From Desulfuromonadales bacterium (lineage in GTDB: Bacteria; Desulfobacterota; Desulfuromonadia; Desulfuromonadales; BM103): a DNA stretch of 64,000 nucleotides. Position 1 is the first letter of the stretch. The number at the start of each line of letters is the position of its first letter. The stretch spans positions 15,978 through 79,977 of the forward strand of contig JAQYVZ010000008.1 of the NCBI GenBank assembly GCA_030145205.1, given 5' to 3'. Shown here one piece after another: positions 7,867-27,400 of the stretch. The notes beneath the pieces were generated by a model. It made no database searches, had not been told where the DNA came from, and worked only from the letters and a program-made list of their open reading frames with translations. Made by a program: the position numbers and the translations under genes.

Positions 7867-8697
7867 ATGTCGCGAATTGAACACATTCTGGGTGATCTGA
7901 AAGAGCGGGGCGAGAAAGCGCTCGTTACCTTTGTTACGGCCGGCGACCCCGACCTGGAAACGACGGAGCAGGTCATTCATACTCTGGTTGAAGCCGGGGC
8001 AGACCTGATCGAGCTCGGTTTCCCCTTCTCGGACCCTATGGCAGACGGGCCGACCATCCAAGCCGCATCGCAGCGGGCGCTGGACGCCGGGACGACCCTG
8101 GAGGGCGTGCTTGCACTGGTCCGGCGGGTCCGTGAGCATACCAATGTTCCGATTGTTTTGATGGGTTATTACAACCCGGTCTTCTGTTACGGGCCGGAAG
8201 CGTTCGCGCAGGCCGCTGCTGCTGCTGGAGTCGACGGCTTGCTGCTGGTCGATCTGCCGCCAGAAGAGGCGGGCGAACTCCAGCCGTTTTTGCAATCGGC
8301 CGGAGTTGACCTGATCACCCTGCTGGCACCGACCACCGACCCGCAACGTATGGTTCGCCTGGCCGGGGCAGCCGAAGGGTTTCTATACTACGTCTCCATG
8401 ACGGGAGTGACTGGTAGCCAGGCGGTCGATGCCGCTGCCATCCGTGATGCCGTGTCAGAACTGCAAGCGCTGAGCCGGGTTCCCGTGGCGGTCGGTTTCG
8501 GAGTGACGTCCCCGCAAGCGGCACGAGATATCGCCATGTTTGCCGATGCTGTAGTGGTTGGCAGCGCCTTGGTCAAGATTATCGAAAGCCATGGGAATTC
8601 CGCGCAGCTATTGCCGGAAGTCAGCCGTTTTGTTAGCTCCCTGAAAGAGGCTGTGCGGTCTGCTGCGACAAACGTTCCCACAGCAGATGAGGCTTGA
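7867..8697 (+). CDS. trpA: tryptophan synthase alpha chain
   Basis: Motifs AGADLIELGFPFSDPMADGPTIQ, YYNP and VGFGV are present. Confidence 0.93.
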   Translation: MSRIEHILGDLKERGEKALVTFVTAGDPDLETTEQVIHTLVEAGADLIELGFPFSDPMADGPTIQAASQRALDAGTTLEGVLALVRRVREHTNVPIVLMGYYNPVFCYGPEAFAQAAAAAGVDGLLLVDLPPEEAGELQPFLQSAGVDLITLLAPTTDPQRMVRLAGAAEGFLYYVSMTGVTGSQAVDAAAIRDAVSELQALSRVPVAVGFGVTSPQAARDIAMFADAVVVGSALVKIIESHGNSAQLLPEVSRFVSSLKEAVRSAATNVPTADEA

Positions 8698-17695: not shown

Positions 17696-17777
<82 letters not shown>

Positions 17778-17782
17778 ATCAA

Positions 17783-17812
17783 GGACTTGCGTTAATTCGC
17801 AGGTCCTTTTTT
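17783..17812 (+). terminator. rho-independent terminator after the tRNA (island-side copy)
   Basis: GGACTTGCG-ttaatt-CGCAGGTCC followed by a T-run. It is homologous to the terminator at 24578-24605. Confidence 0.7.
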
Positions 17813-17817
17813 ATTGC

Positions 17818-17840
17818 CCTGTACCCTAAATTGTACCCTA
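17818..17840 (+). repeat. tandem TGTACCCTA motif pair (candidate integrase arm site, left)
   Basis: CCTGTACCCTAAATTGTACCCTA. A near-identical copy lies at 24384-24406 in the same orientation. Confidence 0.6.
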
Positions 17841-17873: not shown

Positions 17874-19001
17874 ATGGCAAGTCTCAAGAAACGGGGTAAA
17901 AGTTACTACGCTCAATATTATGCAGGCACTCGGCAGCGCCGGGTGTGCCTGCATACCTCTTCGCTGCAAATCGCCAAGGAAAAAGTCAGGCAGATTGAGT
18001 CAGCGCAACTCAGGGGGATGGATAACCCTCTCCCGACCCGCACGCTTTTACATAAGGTTGTGCAAGCCTATCTTCAATATCTCCCCACAGTCAAAACCGT
18101 CGCGAATATTCGGCGTGATGCCTACTACCTGAGAAGCGCATTTGGACAAATCTGCCCAGAGTTGGAAATTAAGAATGAGAAGATCAGCCGTAAGGGGATT
18201 AAGTGCCCGAGCCGGAAAGAAGCGCTACCGATCCAGGTGAAATATTTTGAACAGGTAACAACACGCGACATTGCCGACTTTATTGCCGCCCAAGTTCGAA
18301 ATAAGGCACTGGCACCGAAAACGGCAAACCATTACCGGACGATACTGACTCGCCTCTATAACTGGGCCATGAGTCAGTATGGAATTAGGATGCCTAATGA
18401 CAGGAACCCGGCGTCGAAAGTGGAGCGCTACAAGGAGAAGGCCCCCAATATTCGTTTTCTGTCTTTGGCGCAAATTGACGAGCAGTTGAAATCTTTGGAG
18501 GGACAGCCTCAGTTGCAGGCAATGGTAGCGGTTTATATCTACGCTGGGTTGAGAAGGGAAGAGGCGCTTTGGTTGACGGTGGATGACATGGATTTTGATG
18601 CTGGGCCAAATGGGATGCTTCGGGTTCAGGCTAAAACGGTTGATGGTGAATCTTGGGAGCCGAAGACTAAGATTAATCGAGTGGTGCCGATTAGTAGTGC
18701 GCTTCGTAAATATCTGGATCAGTATGAGGTGGTGGAGTCTGATGGTGGGTGGTTTTTCTCAAGCTCGAAGGGAATGTGCTGGGATGTAAATAACTTTTCG
18801 AGAGAGTTGAGGAAGGTCAATCAGGCGAGCGAGCTTCCTTGGACAAATCTAGATTATCGGCACACTTTTGGTAGCCAGCTTGCCATGAAAGGGGAAAGCC
18901 TGTATAAAATCTCTAAATTAATGGGAAATTCCCCAGAGATTTGCCGTAGGCATTATGCTGCTTTAGTTCCAGAATCATTAGTTGATTCTGTTGAGTTCTG
19001 A
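17874..19001 (+). CDS. int: tyrosine-type site-specific integrase
   Basis: Begins MASLKKRGKSYYAQYY. C-terminal catalytic signature is GLRREEAL...YRHTFGSQLA...CRRHYAAL. Sits next to a tRNA. Confidence 0.9.
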   Translation: MASLKKRGKSYYAQYYAGTRQRRVCLHTSSLQIAKEKVRQIESAQLRGMDNPLPTRTLLHKVVQAYLQYLPTVKTVANIRRDAYYLRSAFGQICPELEIKNEKISRKGIKCPSRKEALPIQVKYFEQVTTRDIADFIAAQVRNKALAPKTANHYRTILTRLYNWAMSQYGIRMPNDRNPASKVERYKEKAPNIRFLSLAQIDEQLKSLEGQPQLQAMVAVYIYAGLRREEALWLTVDDMDFDAGPNGMLRVQAKTVDGESWEPKTKINRVVPISSALRKYLDQYEVVESDGGWFFSSSKGMCWDVNNFSRELRKVNQASELPWTNLDYRHTFGSQLAMKGESLYKISKLMGNSPEICRRHYAALVPESLVDSVEF

Positions 19002-19002
19002 G

Positions 19003-20166
19003 ATGAAAAAAAAATCGGAAAATAGGAAAAGTAAAGCTAAGCGTCACTATGAGCTTTTGAAGCGAAAAGAGAAACGGAAAGCTTCTTTGAGGAGAGTGAG
19101 GAAGTTTAAAAGAAAACGTTATCTTGTGATATTGAACGAAATCTTGAGAATTGAAAAAGATAGACGTGATCTTGTTAGAAATATTTATAAAGGCAGAAAG
19201 TTTCAAGGTGAAAACTTAGAAATAGATATTGATGGGAGCTATGGGCTAGAGGAAAAGAGAAGCTTTCTCGATTTTGTAACTAAATCATCTGAATTCATTG
19301 ATTTTGATTCAAAAGAGCTGTACTTAAATTTCGATAAAACTAAAAGACTTTGGCCGTCTGCTATTACTTTACTCTGTTCTCTTAAACAGTGGGTAGAGAT
19401 ATGCACGAAAAATAAAGTTGATAAACCACTGATTTCTTCAAGTACCCCAAATGAAGATGATGTAGCTTCATATCTCAACCATTGCGGTTTTTATGATTAT
19501 GTTGATAGAAGGTCGGATTTTGTCGAAAATAAGTACTCAGACAGCGACACAGCTAAAATCAGGCGGGAATATGCAGGGGACAATCCGGATGAAAGGGAGA
19601 ATGAAATAATAAGGATGCTAGAGGATTTCTCGGTGTTCAATGAAGACGAGATAGAGATTTTTGGTGACAGGGTGCTGATAGAAATATTTAACAATGTGAT
19701 GGAACATGGTATTTCCCATAGGGATCAAGGGTGGTGGCTTCTTGCTCAAAGACACCCAGAACATAAGTTGATTTCAATTTGTATCGCTGATAATGGTATC
19801 GGTATAAGAAATTCGTTAATGACGGGACCACAAAGAAGGCAGGTAAAGAGGCAAATAGAGAATACTTCGACGAAAGACGGCGAGTTTATTAAGTTAGCAA
19901 TTGAAGAAAAAGTTAGTGGGGCTATAAGAGCTTCAGTGAAGGAGCGGACTGGGTTGATAGGGTCCAAATATCCACTGGGTGCAAACAGGGGAAATGGTTT
20001 GAAGAGGATCCGGGCTGCTTTGTGGCAACTTAATACAGAATGGTCCATTTTGTCTCATAATGGATATATGCATTTTAATAGAAAGGGTGATGTTGTGCAC
20101 TGTTCGGCGGAGCCCAAGAGAGTATTTGCTGGTACTATGTATCATATAAACGTAGAAGCGAGGTGA
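19003..20166 (+). CDS. GHKL-superfamily ATPase / SpoIIAB-RsbW-like putative Ser kinase with a poly-basic N-terminal tail
   Basis: N-box EIFNNVMEHG (19681-19710), G1 box DNGIGI (19789-19806) and G2 box GNGLKRI (19990-20010). The first ~45 aa are K/R-rich. The ATG lies 1 nt after the int stop. Confidence 0.75.
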   Translation: MKKKSENRKSKAKRHYELLKRKEKRKASLRRVRKFKRKRYLVILNEILRIEKDRRDLVRNIYKGRKFQGENLEIDIDGSYGLEEKRSFLDFVTKSSEFIDFDSKELYLNFDKTKRLWPSAITLLCSLKQWVEICTKNKVDKPLISSSTPNEDDVASYLNHCGFYDYVDRRSDFVENKYSDSDTAKIRREYAGDNPDERENEIIRMLEDFSVFNEDEIEIFGDRVLIEIFNNVMEHGISHRDQGWWLLAQRHPEHKLISICIADNGIGIRNSLMTGPQRRQVKRQIENTSTKDGEFIKLAIEEKVSGAIRASVKERTGLIGSKYPLGANRGNGLKRIRAALWQLNTEWSILSHNGYMHFNRKGDVVHCSAEPKRVFAGTMYHINVEAR

Positions 20167-20169
20167 CCT

Positions 20170-20505
20170 ATGGACGCTCTTGATGTAGGTACAGACTTTT
20201 ATCATAGGCTGGCAAATCGAGACGAACGTCAGGGAGATGGAAGACATAATGCCGTTGAGTTCAGAAAAAAGTATTTGAAGGGTTTGGATGATCCCGCAGC
20301 ATGGGAAAATGATGACGTGTACATCGTTCTCGACTTTTCAAATGTGAAAAAGCTGGGCCCATCATTCGCTAATGAGGCTTTTGCATATTTTACGAGGTAT
20401 TCAAAGAACAAGTCTCTGGTAAAGAAAAAAATTAATTTCATCAATATAAGCAAGGTTAAGGAAGAAACAATAGATGTTGAGCTCGAGAGTGGATATAAGA
20501 GATGA
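20170..20505 (+). CDS. STAS-like (DUF4325-like) small protein
   Basis: 111 aa. The LDFSNVKKLGPSFANEAF segment (20329-20382) resembles the SpoIIAA/RsbV-type strand-loop-Ser region. GAGGTGA RBS; starts 3 nt after the upstream stop. Confidence 0.65.
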   Translation: MDALDVGTDFYHRLANRDERQGDGRHNAVEFRKKYLKGLDDPAAWENDDVYIVLDFSNVKKLGPSFANEAFAYFTRYSKNKSLVKKKINFINISKVKEETIDVELESGYKR

Positions 20506-21086
20506 TATACGTGTTTATATGGTCTCTGGTCGTGCTCGGTGCTATTTTCTATGTTGTGGTGCCTTACCACCTTTTCTGGAAAAATGGTGTTGGCTTTGAA
20601 CTTCAGAGAAGCTATTTTTTAACTTTAGTTTCTTATGTAACATTGCTTTCTAGTATTTTTGGATTGTATTTGGGTAATTATTATTTTAAATCAAAAAATA
20701 ACATCGAAGAAAGAAGGATAAAAAAAGATAAAATTGAAAATAGAATAAATTATATTCTTAATGAACTAAAAAGTTTAGATGGAAAAATAGAAAAGGTTTT
20801 GTTCGGATCAGTTGAAAATTTTGATGACCTTTCTATGCTTAGGGATAAAATAACAAAAAAAGCTGAAGAAATTTTGATTATAATTGAAAACAGTGAAGAT
20901 ATTTTAAACTTAGATAGTTTCAATATTAAGTATTTTGTAGAATTGTGGTCTTTGTTGGAAACAAACGAAAATTTCATGCATAGTAATTTTGATTCTTATA
21001 AGGATTCAGATTTTGAAACTCTCAAAGACAATTACAGGGAATCTTTGAAGTTAGTTAAATGGACCTGTGTTAATAGCCTTGAGTGA
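20502..21086 (+). CDS. 2-TM membrane protein with a K/E/N-rich coiled-coil C-terminal domain (putative effector)
   Basis: ATGA overlap with the upstream gene. Hydrophobic helices are IYVFIWSLVVLGAIFYVVVPY and FLTLVSYVTLLSSIFGLYLGNYYF. Extremely AT-rich. Confidence 0.65.
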   Translation: MIYVFIWSLVVLGAIFYVVVPYHLFWKNGVGFELQRSYFLTLVSYVTLLSSIFGLYLGNYYFKSKNNIEERRIKKDKIENRINYILNELKSLDGKIEKVLFGSVENFDDLSMLRDKITKKAEEILIIIENSEDILNLDSFNIKYFVELWSLLETNENFMHSNFDSYKDSDFETLKDNYRESLKLVKWTCVNSLE

Positions 21087-21138: not shown

Positions 21139-21336
21139 TCAAATCATCCGTTCTTGCTCATAAACCTCCACCTCCTTTCTCAGAAATCGAACCATTCCAT
21201 TCTTGCCTTCTCCCAGGTAGAGTCGCTTGATCCCGGCTCTTTGGGTAATCCTATCCACAGATGACCTGGCACATTGCCAGCGGTCAGCGAGCTCTTTGGG
21301 TGAGATATATGGGGAGGTTTGTTTATCCAGTTGCAT
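21139..21336 (-). CDS. xis: excisionase/AlpA-family helix-turn-helix protein
   Basis: MQLDKQTSPYISPKELADRWQCARSSVDRITQRAGIKRLYLG...FLRKEVEVYE. GGAGGGG RBS precedes the ATG at 21336. Confidence 0.7.
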   Translation of the reverse strand: MQLDKQTSPYISPKELADRWQCARSSVDRITQRAGIKRLYLGEGKNGMVRFLRKEVEVYEQERMI

Positions 21337-22519
21337 ATTCCCCTCCATCTTTGGCCGGATGCTTCCCAAGCATGATTGACCGTTTCTGTACAGCCTCTTT
21401 GAAATCGCGGTCAAACCAGTACGCTATGACCTGAGCATTCAACTCATTCAATGCATAATCGAGGTTGATGGTGTGGGTACGTGCTGCGATGGATGCGAGG
21501 CAGCCTGCTATGTGTGTGATGTACCAATCCAGCGGTGTCAAGTACTCACCTTCGGTGAGGCGCTGTAGCGCAACTGCTGGGCCGAAGTGGTCAGCGAGAG
21601 ATTCTACTGACGTCCACCATGGGTGAGCCTTGCGACGGTTCTGCCGTTCGTGGTGGGGAAGGCGGAGGGTGAACCACTCGCCTGTGAGGTACTGCCATAT
21701 CCCACCCAGTTTGTTTCTCAGGCAGTCTACAGTCTCGATCCGGAACTGACGCAGCACACTCCGGCGCAGTTGGAATTCCACCCGCCAGACACAGGTCGGG
21801 TCAGTTTTGCCCCAAAGAGACTGATACCATTGCTTGCCTCGTTTCTGGATTTCTTTGCCTTTGTCGTAAATTCGCAGCTGGATCGGAGCGTCTGTTGCAC
21901 CGATGTAGAAAGTTTCCAACTGGTCATTTGAAAAGAACTGGCGTTGATCACGGCTGCGGCAGACCTTGTGATCGTTCAGGAAGGGCAGGGAGAGATCGCC
22001 GGGAATGTAAAAGTCCGCAGCCAGGTCGCAGCGGCTCGGTTGAAAATACAGGACATCCCCGCCAAATGATCTAATGTCACGTTCCGCTAGTTCAACGCAC
22101 TTGACGACTCCGAGGTGCCAAAGAGCTTCGGCATTGAACGATACATAGATATTTGGGGTTTTTGCTGGGGTCTGGCTGATCCCTATATATAGATGGTATT
22201 CAGGGAACTGAAGGTGAAAGCGATACTGAGGCGGTTTGCCATTGGCGTGGTGGATGTACTGCCGCCCAGAATTGGTGTTGCAGATCAGTCCGGTTTTTAT
22301 CTGGGCTTGTTCCTTTCTGTTTTGAAACGTCTCTTTTCTATTGTCCCAGTTGTCATTCCATTCGACATAACCTCCCAGGTCGAGGGAGTCAATGCCACAT
22401 AGTAAGAATTCAAATCCTTCTTGAAATGGTATTAGCGCATGGCGTGTTACAGATTTCGCCATGCTGGGATTGAAAAACTCTTTTTCTTGTTCTGATAAAA
22501 AAGCCATAAATAACTCCAT
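21323..22519 (-). CDS. replication initiation protein, Rep_trans-like (rolling-circle type)
   Basis: FYIGATDAPIQLRIYDKGKEI...VWRVEFQLRRSVL resembles the RxYDK...RxE motif pair of PF02486-type initiators. The start may be the ATG at 22507. Confidence 0.65.
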   Translation of the reverse strand: MELFMAFLSEQEKEFFNPSMAKSVTRHALIPFQEGFEFLLCGIDSLDLGGYVEWNDNWDNRKETFQNRKEQAQIKTGLICNTNSGRQYIHHANGKPPQYRFHLQFPEYHLYIGISQTPAKTPNIYVSFNAEALWHLGVVKCVELAERDIRSFGGDVLYFQPSRCDLAADFYIPGDLSLPFLNDHKVCRSRDQRQFFSNDQLETFYIGATDAPIQLRIYDKGKEIQKRGKQWYQSLWGKTDPTCVWRVEFQLRRSVLRQFRIETVDCLRNKLGGIWQYLTGEWFTLRLPHHERQNRRKAHPWWTSVESLADHFGPAVALQRLTEGEYLTPLDWYITHIAGCLASIAARTHTINLDYALNELNAQVIAYWFDRDFKEAVQKRSIMLGKHPAKDGGEYATG

Positions 22520-22605
22520 TGCTGCGCATTGTCGCGCGGTAGAAGTTACCTATGGCTCGCTTACCAGGATTATCCCTGCTGGCTCTAGGTTGAACTTGAT
22601 TTAAA

Positions 22606-22758
22606 TTACTTATCTTCGATTTTCTCCTTTGAACACAATTGGGCTCCATTTCGGTTCCTCGTCGAGATCATAAGGTATTTGGTCGTCTGCTGCCGTTTGC
22701 CGATCACTGTGACCGACAAAGGCAGATCCTCCGCCCGTATTACGATTTCACGTTTCAC
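22606..22758 (-). CDS. small hypothetical protein (50 aa)
   Basis: GTG start preceded by AAGGAGGTGA. Lies between the RHH and Rep genes on the same strand. No recognisable motif. Confidence 0.35.
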   Translation of the reverse strand: MKREIVIRAEDLPLSVTVIGKRQQTTKYLMISTRNRNGAQLCSKEKIEDK

Positions 22759-22783
22759 TTTTCTCACCTCCTTTCATTTGTGA

Positions 22784-23272
22784 TTAGTGGTTATGGGTTG
22801 CCTTAAATGCTTTGACCCCAAGATCATTTATTTCATTGAAGGCTTTACCTAGCCTCTTGCATGCATCGTTAATTTTGAAAGCACCGATTTTCCCCAAAAC
22901 CTCGAGTTCCTCAACACCAATGTAGAGAAGGTTTTTCATGAGGCGGTGTCGGGAGATCTCGAGCGCCTCAGAATACCTGTCAAGGAGTTGCCAGGTTTCC
23001 TCATCAAGTGTAATTGGGACCGGTTTGGTCTCGCCAGTTTCTTTCCAGCTTTCAACTTTGCCCCGTTTCTCATCAACCTGTCGAAGAAGTAAGCCGATTT
23101 TGAAGAAGCCCACCGTCTTAAAGGCCTTAAGATGGTCTAAGCCAACGGCCACCATGTTTTTCATCAGTTGCTGTCGAGAAAGATCCGCTTCGGTTGCCAA
23201 AATATCTAGTCGTTTCATCCACCCAGAATCAAGTTTGATCGTGCTTGTTTTTTTATTGCCAATCTGGACCAT
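22784..23272 (-). CDS. tandem ribbon-helix-helix (CopG/Arc-like) DNA-binding protein
   Basis: Internal duplication: IKLDSGWMKRLDILATEADLSRQQLMKNMVAVGLDHLKAFKTVGFFKIG versus ITLDEETWQLLDRYSEALEISRHRLMKNLLYIGVEELEVLGKIGAFKIN. Confidence 0.6.
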   Translation of the reverse strand: MVQIGNKKTSTIKLDSGWMKRLDILATEADLSRQQLMKNMVAVGLDHLKAFKTVGFFKIGLLLRQVDEKRGKVESWKETGETKPVPITLDEETWQLLDRYSEALEISRHRLMKNLLYIGVEELEVLGKIGAFKINDACKRLGKAFNEINDLGVKAFKATHNH

Positions 23273-23323: not shown

Positions 23324-23451
23324 TCAAGGGGGAAGTTCATGTAAGAAATTTACGTTCGTTGGGGTAGCCAAAATGATCACATGACTATTTTGAGTTATGT
23401 GTTAAGGTTTTTTTCTAGTGATTAAACAAGAGATTTGGTACAGGGGTGGTT

Positions 23452-24372
23452 ATGAGAGATTTTAGCCTTTTGGCGATTTTAGTCAGTGTGGTTAGTGCAG
23501 TGGTTGCTCTTTTGTCAGCAAGGCATGCAAGAAAAACTTTTCAAGAGAATAGGAACATCTCTTATCTAAATTTTTACAATATTATTCAGAAACATCACTC
23601 CAGAGAAATTACAGATTTAAGAAGAACTGTCAGAGATGGCTTCAAAGTTGTTGCTGAAACAGCAAGAAAAAAAGGTCTGCCTATTAAAGATATAGATGAA
23701 AGTATGCATTTAGAGGTTTCAACTCTAGCTAATTATTATGAATCTTTAGGGATGTTTTTACAGGGTGGATGGCATTTTTTTCCAAAAGAAGTGCAGGAGA
23801 CAATGTTGGAAATGCTCCATAACTCTGCAACTGAGCATTGGAGCCAACTAGCTCCATATAAGGATTTGATTCACCCAAGACGTCCAAATGATTGGGCGAA
23901 GAGTTTTGAGTGGTTAAATAACAAGTGTGTTGCGTATCGAAAGGAACATAAAATCGAGAATGCAGATAAGCTTGTCGGCACTTCAATTATTTTTGTTAAT
24001 TCACAAAATAAGGTTCTGCTATTACTTAGAGACGATAAACCGACAATAAAGTATCCCAATATGTGGGATATCCCGGGTGGTAATCTTGAGGCGAGCGAAA
24101 CGCCTCAAGAATGTATAAAAAGAGAAATGAAAGAAGAGCTTGGTCTTGCACTTGAAAAGCTAGATTTGTTCGAGTGCAGAGAGTTCAATGATAGAATCGA
24201 ATATACGTTTTGGCGAGAAAAGGACATAGATATCGCAAGTGTCAACTTGACCGAAGGCCAAAAAATCGAATGGTTCTCAGCTGAAGAAATTAGCGGGATG
24301 GAGCTTGCCTTTGAATTTAATGTAACGCTCGAATCCTTTTTTGAGCAGACCCCATTCAAAAGAACAGAATAA
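23452..24372 (+). CDS. membrane-anchored helical domain fused to a NUDIX hydrolase domain
   Basis: N-terminal TM segment LLAILVSVVSAVVALL, then a ~170-aa helical region. Canonical Nudix box GGNLEASETPQECIKREMKEELGL at 24076-24147. Confidence 0.8.
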   Translation: MRDFSLLAILVSVVSAVVALLSARHARKTFQENRNISYLNFYNIIQKHHSREITDLRRTVRDGFKVVAETARKKGLPIKDIDESMHLEVSTLANYYESLGMFLQGGWHFFPKEVQETMLEMLHNSATEHWSQLAPYKDLIHPRRPNDWAKSFEWLNNKCVAYRKEHKIENADKLVGTSIIFVNSQNKVLLLLRDDKPTIKYPNMWDIPGGNLEASETPQECIKREMKEELGLALEKLDLFECREFNDRIEYTFWREKDIDIASVNLTEGQKIEWFSAEEISGMELAFEFNVTLESFFEQTPFKRTE

Positions 24373-24383
24373 AAGAAAGCTGG

Positions 24384-24406
24384 CCTGTACCCTAATATGT
24401 ACCCTA
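24384..24406 (+). repeat. tandem TGTACCCTA motif pair (candidate integrase arm site, right)
   Basis: CCTGTACCCTAATATGTACCCTA. Matches 17818-17840 at 21 of 23 positions. Confidence 0.6.
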
Positions 24407-24521: not shown

Positions 24522-24572
24522 GCTCATAACCCGAAGGTCACAGGTTCAAATCCTGTCCCCGCTACCAATAAA
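24522..24572 (+). repeat. attR core: displaced 3' half of tRNA-fMet
   Basis: Carries the anticodon loop through CCA plus ATAAA, with no 5' half upstream. Partner of 17727-17777. Confidence 0.85.
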
Positions 24573-24577
24573 GATCA

Positions 24578-24605
24578 GGGCTTGCGATTTTCGCAAGCCC
24601 TTTTT
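24578..24605 (+). terminator. rho-independent terminator (probably the native tRNA terminator)
   Basis: GGGCTTGCG-atttt-CGCAAGCCC followed by TTTTT. Confidence 0.7.
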
Positions 24606-24724
24606 GTTTGTCTGCTGTTCCCTGAGTTGTCCCCTGCTTCTACCGTGAAGGCCGTCCTTGCTGCCGGTTGCCCCGCCTAACGCCTGCAATGTTATAATGA
24701 AGTTGTTAGCCGAAAGAGGCTGTT

Positions 24725-27323: not shown

Positions 27324-27400
27324 GGCGGTGTAGCTCAGCTGGTTAGAGCATGCGGCTCATATCCGCAGTGTCCGGAGTTCGAATCTCTGCACCGCCACCA
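27324..27400 (+). tRNA. tRNA with CAT anticodon (elongator Met, or Ile2 modified to lysidine)
   Basis: Cloverleaf: GGCGGTG acceptor stem, GCTC/GAGC D stem, TGCGG-CTCATAT-CCGCA anticodon arm, TTCGAAT T-loop, encoded CCA. Confidence 0.85.

Follow-up and report, generated by a model that had tools for sequence, protein, structure and literature searches.

The closest described relatives of the locus presented here were reported by Chambers et al. (EMBO J 2026; PMC13373217), who describe the CapK-CapS and VapKSC systems. CapK is a kinase composed of helix-turn-helix (HTH), STAS and GHKL domains, and CapS is a repressor in which a STAS domain is joined to a winged HTH (wHTH); once activated by single-stranded DNA (ssDNA), CapK phosphorylates CapS at Ser54, and the adjacent immune operons are de-repressed. 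This DNA-damage-activated pair is located upstream of CBASS, Bub or Thoeris operons, and approximately 20% of the capK-capS pairs sit directly downstream of restriction-modification (R-M) systems. VapKSC consists of the STAS-GHKL kinase VapK, the STAS antitoxin VapS (116 aa) and the PIN toxin VapC; a phosphomimetic VapS variant (S48E) neither neutralizes VapC nor co-purifies with it, and the VapKSC operon provides about 2 logs of protection against phage Bas42 (PMC13373217). Here, we focus on three adjacent genes, A, B and C, located in a 64,000-nucleotide stretch of DNA from a Desulfuromonadales bacterium (contig JAQYVZ010000008.1, positions 15,978 to 79,977; assembly GCA_030145205.1); the whole stretch is referred to as the window, and nucleotide coordinates given without a locus name are window positions. 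An initial annotation had read this trio as a GHKL kinase-STAS switch with a membrane partner, carried as cargo of an integrative element. Its account of the parts and of their cargo status holds, but a kinase-STAS switch gating a toxin in phage defense is, as of 2026, already known, having been published as VapKSC (PMC13373217). The reading that we favor, with a probability of approximately 55%, is that the trio forms a self-contained kinase-gated toxin-antitoxin or abortive-infection module, in which a VapKSC-type switch controls a different output.

All three genes lie on the forward strand. Gene A (19003-20166) encodes a 387-aa STAS-GHKL Ser/Thr kinase-like protein, assigned as a VapK/CapK homologue by profile alignment, structural model and its match to phrog_3364; gene B (20170-20505) encodes a 111-aa DUF4325/STAS-like protein, VapS-like according to its Pfam DUF4325 and VapS matches; and gene C (20502-21086) encodes a 194-aa protein with two transmembrane (TM) segments, proposed as the effector and described from hydropathy and an AF2 model. 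These coordinates and the tight junctions first reported for the operon were confirmed by the open reading frame (ORF) listing and by direct reading of the DNA: the TGA of A ends at 20166 and is followed by 'cct' and the ATG of B at 20170, leaving a 3-nt gap at a junction that carries a Shine-Dalgarno-like stretch (AGCGAGG), while B and C overlap by the ATGA at 20502-20505. In addition to its main start (ATG at 19003), gene A has an alternative TTG start at 18982. As the stop codon of the preceding integrase gene (TGA, 18999-19001) ends only 1 nt ahead of the ATG of A, transcription may join as many as four genes in one unit; a search for promoters and terminators near the trio gave results no better than chance. 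Proteins A, B and C are all present in NCBI, as found by cluster look-up, under no assigned name.

Protein A was modeled from 35 homologues (AF2; pLDDT 92.7, pTM 0.87) as a helix (residues 6-61), an alpha/beta region (72-166) and an alpha/beta sandwich (195-386). The sandwich (19585-20160, + strand) corresponds to a GHKL (Bergerat) kinase domain, for which Foldseek retrieved the WalK catalytic domain (3sl2, probability 1.0), SpoIIAB (1l0o/1th8, 0.98) and GyrB/ParE. The Bergerat motifs recognized at the outset are present (EIFNNVMEHG at residues 227-236, ADNGIGI at 262-268 and GNGLKRI at 330-336), together with an FAGT motif in the same domain. Across 37 full-length homologues there is little or no variation at the residues of the ATP-binding motifs (E227 and N231, codon 19693-19695, in the N-box; D263, G265 and G267 in G1; G330 and G332 in G2) or at G377/T378, and A therefore looks catalytically active. 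Family-level searches were less informative: Pfam HATPase_c matched A under the cut-off (E 0.019) and HATPase_c_2 at E 0.24, NCBIfam and PADLOC scans gave nothing useful, and the A-family profile run against PDB sequences found spurious low-complexity matches to the basic helix only. With full-length A as the query, Foldseek returned no match at E<=0.001, and the structural matches are domain-level ones, judged on their probabilities and consistency.

The alpha/beta region ahead of the kinase domain (aa 72-166; 19216-19500, + strand) is STAS-like, as judged from Foldseek matches to the STAS proteins 4xs5, 4dgf and 3oir and to SpoIIAA (1h4x), and from its hhalign pairing with the STAS domain of VapK. 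It contains W117-P118 (codons 19351-19356) at the start of helix 118-134, the second STAS helix; this pair varies little or not at all in the family, and W117 is found in 37/37 homologues. The first 61 residues (19003-19185, + strand) form a single long polybasic helix (H6-61 by DSSP): residues 1-62 include 27 K/R against 7 D/E, and the median net charge in the family is +19, the alignment revealing that charge is kept across the family and sequence is not. Such a helix could bind nucleic acid or acidic lipids. The initial annotation had described A as a SpoIIAB-like GHKL ATPase, about as large as an anti-sigma Ser kinase with an additional upstream region of ~200 aa. The GHKL assignment stands, but A is not an extended SpoIIAB: because the upstream region consists of a polybasic helix and a second STAS-like domain, A is, by sequence comparison, a homologue of the CapK/VapK-type STAS-GHKL kinases.

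To place A relative to the described kinases, the VapK, VapS, CapK and CapS sequences were taken from the source data of the study describing them (PMC13373217). In hhalign, the A-family profile aligned with VapK at 96.2% (E 2.3e-9) over 260 columns, pairing A residues 87-387 with VapK residues 26-293 and covering both domains, whereas the alignment with CapK (88%) was confined to the GHKL domain. Moreover, a phmmer search with VapK finds several members of the A family as well as intermediate relatives of ~300-350 aa. About 170 homologues of the same length as A occur in a large protein database, at <=50% identity, and an exhaustive profile search recovered 107 clusters (50% identity) at E<=1e-30, followed by a clear gap and by ~770 more distant clusters, many of them with proteins of 300-350 aa. 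A phage family of ~300-aa proteins, phrog_3364, also matches A over residues 82-385 (E 2.9e-32).

Protein B is the most conserved of the three (mean column identity 60%) and matches Pfam DUF4325 ("STAS-like domain") at E 3.9e-9, as had been anticipated for it. Its profile finds Escherichia VapS (9z7o_A, E 0.0018) as the best match in the whole PDB, and a direct hhalign comparison of B and VapS gave 85% (E 5.8e-6). Residues 54-71 of B read LDFSNVKKLGPSFANEAF, with codon 20362-20364 encoding Ser65; position 65 is S in 48 of the 49 homologues and T in the other, which makes Ser65 a candidate phospho-acceptor. By eye, an S-F-x-x-E motif is common to S65 of B and S54 of CapS, and it is mentioned here as a lead only. 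Moreover, phrog_5816, a phage family of 441 positions, matches both the GHKL region of A (aa 218-361) and B (aa 13-105), implying that natural kinase-DUF4325 fusions exist in phages and suggesting a Rosetta-stone type link between A and B. With homology to VapK and VapS on the one hand, and the shared gene order (kinase, STAS protein, third gene) on the other, a VapKSC-like way of working is the most plausible for the trio.

The initial description of protein C, two N-terminal TM helices and a helical tail, agrees with the hydropathy profile and the AF2 model. TM1 spans aa 2-20 (20505-20561, + strand) and TM2 aa 39-57 (20616-20672, + strand), and the positions of these hydrophobic segments are conserved across homologues. 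The model, derived from a shallow alignment (pLDDT 72.6), is all-helical (H32-100, 107-130, 139-160 and 168-193), and aa ~59-193 form a predicted helical bundle past TM2. This bundle is probably cytoplasmic, since it follows TM2, where K/R residues cluster. Neither Pfam, PADLOC, NCBIfam nor PHROGs assigns C to a family, and it contains neither a PIN domain nor any other enzymatic one. When 36 homologues of C were scanned with Pfam, nothing reproducible emerged, a single homologue giving a marginal SUa-2TM match (E 0.012). In database searches, the single C sequence finds itself only, and the profile finds 5 proteins.

The features of C and of the N-terminus of A bear on a different arrangement of the same parts. 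Output in the classical SpoIIAB/SpoIIAA and RsbW/RsbV modules is regulated by the kinase itself, which the STAS protein sequesters. By that precedent, the trio could be a true partner switch with C as sensor or anchor: C would signal a disturbance of the envelope or membrane, for instance when a phage adsorbs or injects its DNA, and would capture or release B, and B would free or restrain A, which would then phosphorylate host or phage targets or bind nucleic acid via its polybasic helix. The conservation of that helix in A, with none in VapK, is in line with this arrangement, and so is the resemblance of C to generic four-helix sensor bundles, its weak Foldseek matches including the KinB and Tar ligand-binding domains. 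However, the bundle of C is predicted after TM2, and thus is probably cytoplasmic and not outward-facing, neither a fourth gene nor a target is consistently found with the trio, and the nearest relative studied by experiment has a toxin as its third gene product (PMC13373217). We consider a partner switch of this kind unlikely. The classical anti-sigma version of it was rejected, as neither a sigma factor nor a PP2C phosphatase was found in the island that carries the trio, in agreement with the earlier claim that no sigma factor is encoded there, or in the related loci inspected.

Whether A, B and C belong together was assessed from a scan with the A profile across species-representative genomes, metagenomes and IMG/VR, which returned 73 loci. 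The 67 loci from genomes and metagenomes were searched with profile hidden Markov models (HMMs) of each of the three proteins; 40 of these loci are informative, that is, have an intact A and at least 1 kb of sequence downstream. A, then B, then C follow each other on the same strand in 39/40 of these, with gaps mostly between -4 and +18 nt; in the single exception (L009, 8001-11464), an insertion sequence (IS) element is inserted in A. Likewise, all IMG/VR loci with an intact A (5/5) have B and then C. Given that the same genes occur in the same order in nearly every informative locus, the three-gene arrangement is not due to chance and the trio is a conserved unit, which answers the question of co-occurrence and order raised by the initial annotation. 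In the loci examined, no conserved fourth gene or target stands alongside it.

The hosts include Ignavibacteria, Syntrophaceae, Desulfobacteraceae, Cloacimonadota, Firmicutes, Alpha- and Gammaproteobacteria, Geobacter, Nitrospirota, Bacteriovoracaceae, Brevinematales and Spirochaetaceae, a patchy spread that is typical of horizontally moving cargo. Because the A-B-C family occurs only in uncultured lineages and on phage-like contigs, homology-based defense catalogues have missed it. In PADLOC-DB v2.0.0, A and C had no match at E<=1 and B had a weak match to HamA (DUF1837; E 0.005) only; the trio corresponds to no named system there, as initially proposed. Separately, a distant relative was noted in a Saccharibacteria metagenome-assembled genome (MAG; L017:7554-8869), which encodes a GHKL-like protein of 333 aa and, directly after it, a 105-aa ORF judged DUF4325-like by eye. 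The 105-aa ORF has no match to the B-family HMM. As this locus has two genes and no same-strand third gene after them, a kinase-STAS pair may also exist without a dedicated effector.

We then considered the genomic neighborhoods of the trio elsewhere. In three loci (L010:4834-9059 and, from IMG/VR, L068:2834-7059 and L069:2924-7146), the start of A overlaps the stop of a type I hsdR gene, which couples translation of the trio to that of the R-M operon. An overlap of this kind is also seen in L011 (6-1612), there with the stop of a preceding 138-aa ORF for which Pfam gives no match. Just upstream of the trio, L002 contains hsdM, hsdR and then a 223-aa ORF (RadC-like by eye), and L007 contains an AAA_15/AAA_21 ATPase, with an ORF upstream of the ATPase that resembles an R-M specificity subunit by eye. 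In L008 and L016 the trio comes after a 1192-aa SNF2/NOV_C helicase, and in L005 it lies between two sets of Tn7-like genes (TnsA, TnsE_C). A divergent trio from IMG/VR (L072:5974-8111; A at 31% identity), with a 371-aa ORF just upstream, is found between ORFs that by eye resemble phage head and tail genes, and would be a phage-borne 'moron' version. Phage_integrase and ResIII, with five occurrences each, are the commonest Pfam families among 117 neighbor proteins; DEAD, Helicase_C and SMC_N come next, and HSDR_N, SWI2_SNF2 and rve_3 are also represented. PADLOC HmaA was matched by 3/117 neighbor proteins (best E 0), in an aggregated scan in which proteins are not told apart. Overall, the context of the trio is mobile and defense-rich.

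The position behind R-M genes also brings up the possibility that the trio is a CapK-CapS-like regulator that tunes the adjacent R-M or integrase genes, and not an effector system. The location of ~20% of capK-capS pairs just downstream of R-M systems would be a precedent, and A starts 1 nt past the integrase stop in the window and overlaps the hsdR stop in several loci. Against this, B, with its 111 aa, has no wHTH or other DNA-binding domain in a Pfam scan, A does not have the HTH of CapK, the neighbors vary widely among loci while C is constant, and the gene after C in the window is on the opposite strand. With no DNA-binding domains in the trio, a CapKS-like regulator was rejected, and we regard this explanation as very improbable.

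Decay of the locus is informative for another role. In four copies (L016 at 8007-8572, L058, L063 and L064), B is kept, A is fragmentary and C is lost, a pattern that fits toxin loss preceding antitoxin loss. Such toxin-first loss, with retention of the putative antitoxin B, would be expected of a pure addiction module that stabilizes the island, Tn7-like elements and prophages by post-segregational killing and has no anti-phage role, as would the fact that the trio is always on or beside mobile DNA (a tRNA island, a Tn7-like element, phage-like contigs, neighboring integrases). However, simple addiction needs no kinase sensor, the placement behind type I R-M operons and beside defense-like genes matches defense islands, and VapKSC, the nearest relative, protects against a phage. 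Addiction and defense roles are not mutually exclusive, and we give pure addiction only a small chance of accounting for the trio.

For a kinase-gated module with a VapKSC-type switch, the reading that we favor, the observations are the folds, the VapK and VapS homology, the intact catalytic residues, the conserved Ser/Thr of B, the synteny, the coupling of the genes and the mobile and defense-linked context; by analogy, we infer for the trio a signal, the phosphorylation of B, a B-C interaction and the toxicity of C. In such a module, A would be a Ser/Thr protein kinase in which a STAS-like sensor and a GHKL catalytic domain are preceded by the polybasic helix, B would be its small STAS (DUF4325) substrate, and C would be a two-pass inner-membrane protein whose cytoplasmic bundle is kept inactive by unphosphorylated B. 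An infection or DNA-damage cue would activate A; the likeliest candidate is single-stranded nucleic acid, which would be held by the basic helix and in the space separating the STAS domain from the GHKL domain. Activated A would phosphorylate Ser65 of B, and phosphorylated B would release C, which would damage or depolarize the membrane and thereby cause growth arrest of infected cells or of cells losing the element. The placement at the end of hsdR, paralleling that of CapKS downstream of R-M systems, fits the sensing of restriction or repair by-products.

A more specific version goes further and is correspondingly more tentative, with somewhat less than an even chance in our estimate: the trio would be a distinct, undescribed defense family, in which a CapK/VapK-type switch has been rewired to a new 2-TM effector and the polybasic helix serves as an extra nucleic-acid sensor, and the hsdR coupling would suggest a second-line abortive-infection backup, fired by DNA fragments or ssDNA arising from restriction and repair.

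Several results weigh against a VapKSC-type switch with C as its toxin. VapS Ser48 aligns with Pro64 of B, one residue ahead of Ser65, and B ends without the C-terminal helix by which VapS blocks VapC, VapS residues 94-116 being unmatched in the alignment; in addition, hhalign detected no similarity between B and the STAS domain of CapS. In A, W117 is placed two hhalign columns from F54 of VapK, in the same strand-to-helix loop, so that any correspondence to an ssDNA site is tentative. C resembles no known toxin or pore, its Foldseek matches in the PDB being generic helical bundles obtained with a model of moderate confidence, and its proposed effector role is argued by elimination. Moreover, tblastn searches with A against PLSDB plasmids and INPHARED phages gave no match, and the defense enrichment near the trio, seen as raw counts, is no more than suggestive.

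In the window, the trio was initially suggested to be cargo of an integrative element, and this is what the boundaries indicate. A tRNA-Met (CAT) gene identified by ARAGORN (17696-17772, + strand) is the integration target, its 3' half lying within attL (17727-17791), one copy of a 65-nt direct repeat; the other copy, attR (24522-24586), is 89% identical, represents the duplicated 3' half of the tRNA-Met and marks the distal end of an island of ~6.8 kb. The GC content is 37% at 19-20 kb and 34% at 20-21 kb, against 55-60% in the flanks, and returns to ~60% beyond 25 kb, in agreement with the claim that the trio is AT-rich in a high-GC genome. The AT-rich trio thus sits on a genuine integrative island at tRNA-Met. 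A second tRNA-Met (CAT) gene is found at 27324-27400 (+ strand), ~2.7 kb past attR. Just inside both island ends there is a 26-nt repeat, TGCCCTGTACCCTAAATTGTACCCTA, at 17815-17840 and 24381-24406 (the second copy 88% identical), with a weaker third copy past attR, at 24611-24636; these repeats may be arm-type binding sites of the integrase.

The tyrosine integrase itself (17874-19001, + strand; Pfam Phage_integrase E 2.4e-12) has 375 aa from the ATG at 17874, which is the form recorded in databases, and its ORF is open from a TTG at 17814. On the opposite strand, the island backbone (21139-23272, - strand) comprises a 91-aa HTH_17 excisionase-like ORF (21139-21414, - strand; Pfam HTH_17 E 0.0048, a weak match) and a 398-aa ORF with weak similarity to replication initiators (21323-22519, - strand; Pfam Rep_trans E 8e-4, phrog_453 E 4e-4), and a 162-aa RHH protein also belongs to this backbone. 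By analogy with integrative mobilizable elements, the excised island may be able to replicate. The product of a second AT-rich cargo gene (23446-24372, + strand) has 308 aa, with a TM segment at its N-terminus, a weak match to DUF4760 (E 4e-4), a clear NUDIX hydrolase domain (E 9e-18) and a match to phrog_1198 (E 1.3e-19); this TM-DUF4760-NUDIX gene may be a further defense or nucleotide-depletion gene.

If the favored reading is correct, C would represent a new membrane effector family without known relatives, and the trio, with three genes in about 2.1 kb, would offer a compact system in which to study the control of a membrane toxin by phosphorylation. Moreover, the recurrent junction with the ends of type I R-M operons would provide a test case for the coupling of first-line restriction to second-line abortive infection. 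In the literature searched for STAS, GHKL and DUF4325 proteins in defense, only Chambers et al. (PMC13373217) and its preprint were relevant; the term "transmembrane" does not occur in that article, and "membrane" occurs four times, in connection with a stress compound and with blotting membranes.

Compared with known systems, C shares with the 2-TM conflict effectors (CBASS 2TM, SUa-2TM) a small size, an N-terminal TM hairpin and the position as last gene of a sensor-switch operon; it differs by its ~135-aa cytoplasmic helical bundle and by having no nucleotide-sensing domain, and no significant sequence or structural similarity to these effectors was detected. With SpoIIAB/SpoIIAA and RsbW/RsbV, the trio has in common the pairing of a GHKL Ser kinase with a STAS substrate, and SpoIIAB and SpoIIAA are among the structural matches of A; however, A has 387 aa and a STAS domain of its own, and the context is mobile and defense-linked, not developmental or that of a stress regulon. 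The CapK-CapS pair is closer, with a related GHKL domain, STAS ahead of GHKL in both kinases and a frequent location directly downstream of R-M systems. Nevertheless, CapK has an N-terminal HTH where A has the basic helix, CapS is a transcriptional repressor with a wHTH whereas B has neither a DNA-binding domain nor detectable CapS similarity, and no immune operon lies downstream of the trio here.

The strongest likeness is to VapKSC: the three-gene order of kinase, small STAS protein and third protein, a detectably homologous kinase with STAS followed by GHKL, a middle protein of ~110 aa with a DUF4325/STAS fold and a conserved Ser/Thr at the start of helix 2, and a patchy distribution linked to mobile genetic elements and defense. 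The differences are that the third gene encodes a 2-TM helical protein in the trio and a PIN nuclease (VapC) in VapKSC, that A carries an additional ~60-aa polybasic N-terminal helix that is absent from VapK, that B has a strongly conserved N-terminal RLxNRDxxQGDG motif in place of the C-terminal inhibitory helix of VapS, and that A and VapK are only about 20% identical. What appears to be undescribed is the polybasic-helix clade of kinases, a VapS-like protein without the inhibitory tail and a dedicated 2-TM partner. If our reading holds, the STAS-GHKL kinase and DUF4325 switch would be a portable sensor module for very different outputs, namely a repressor (CapKS), a PIN nuclease (VapKSC) and, in the trio, a membrane protein.

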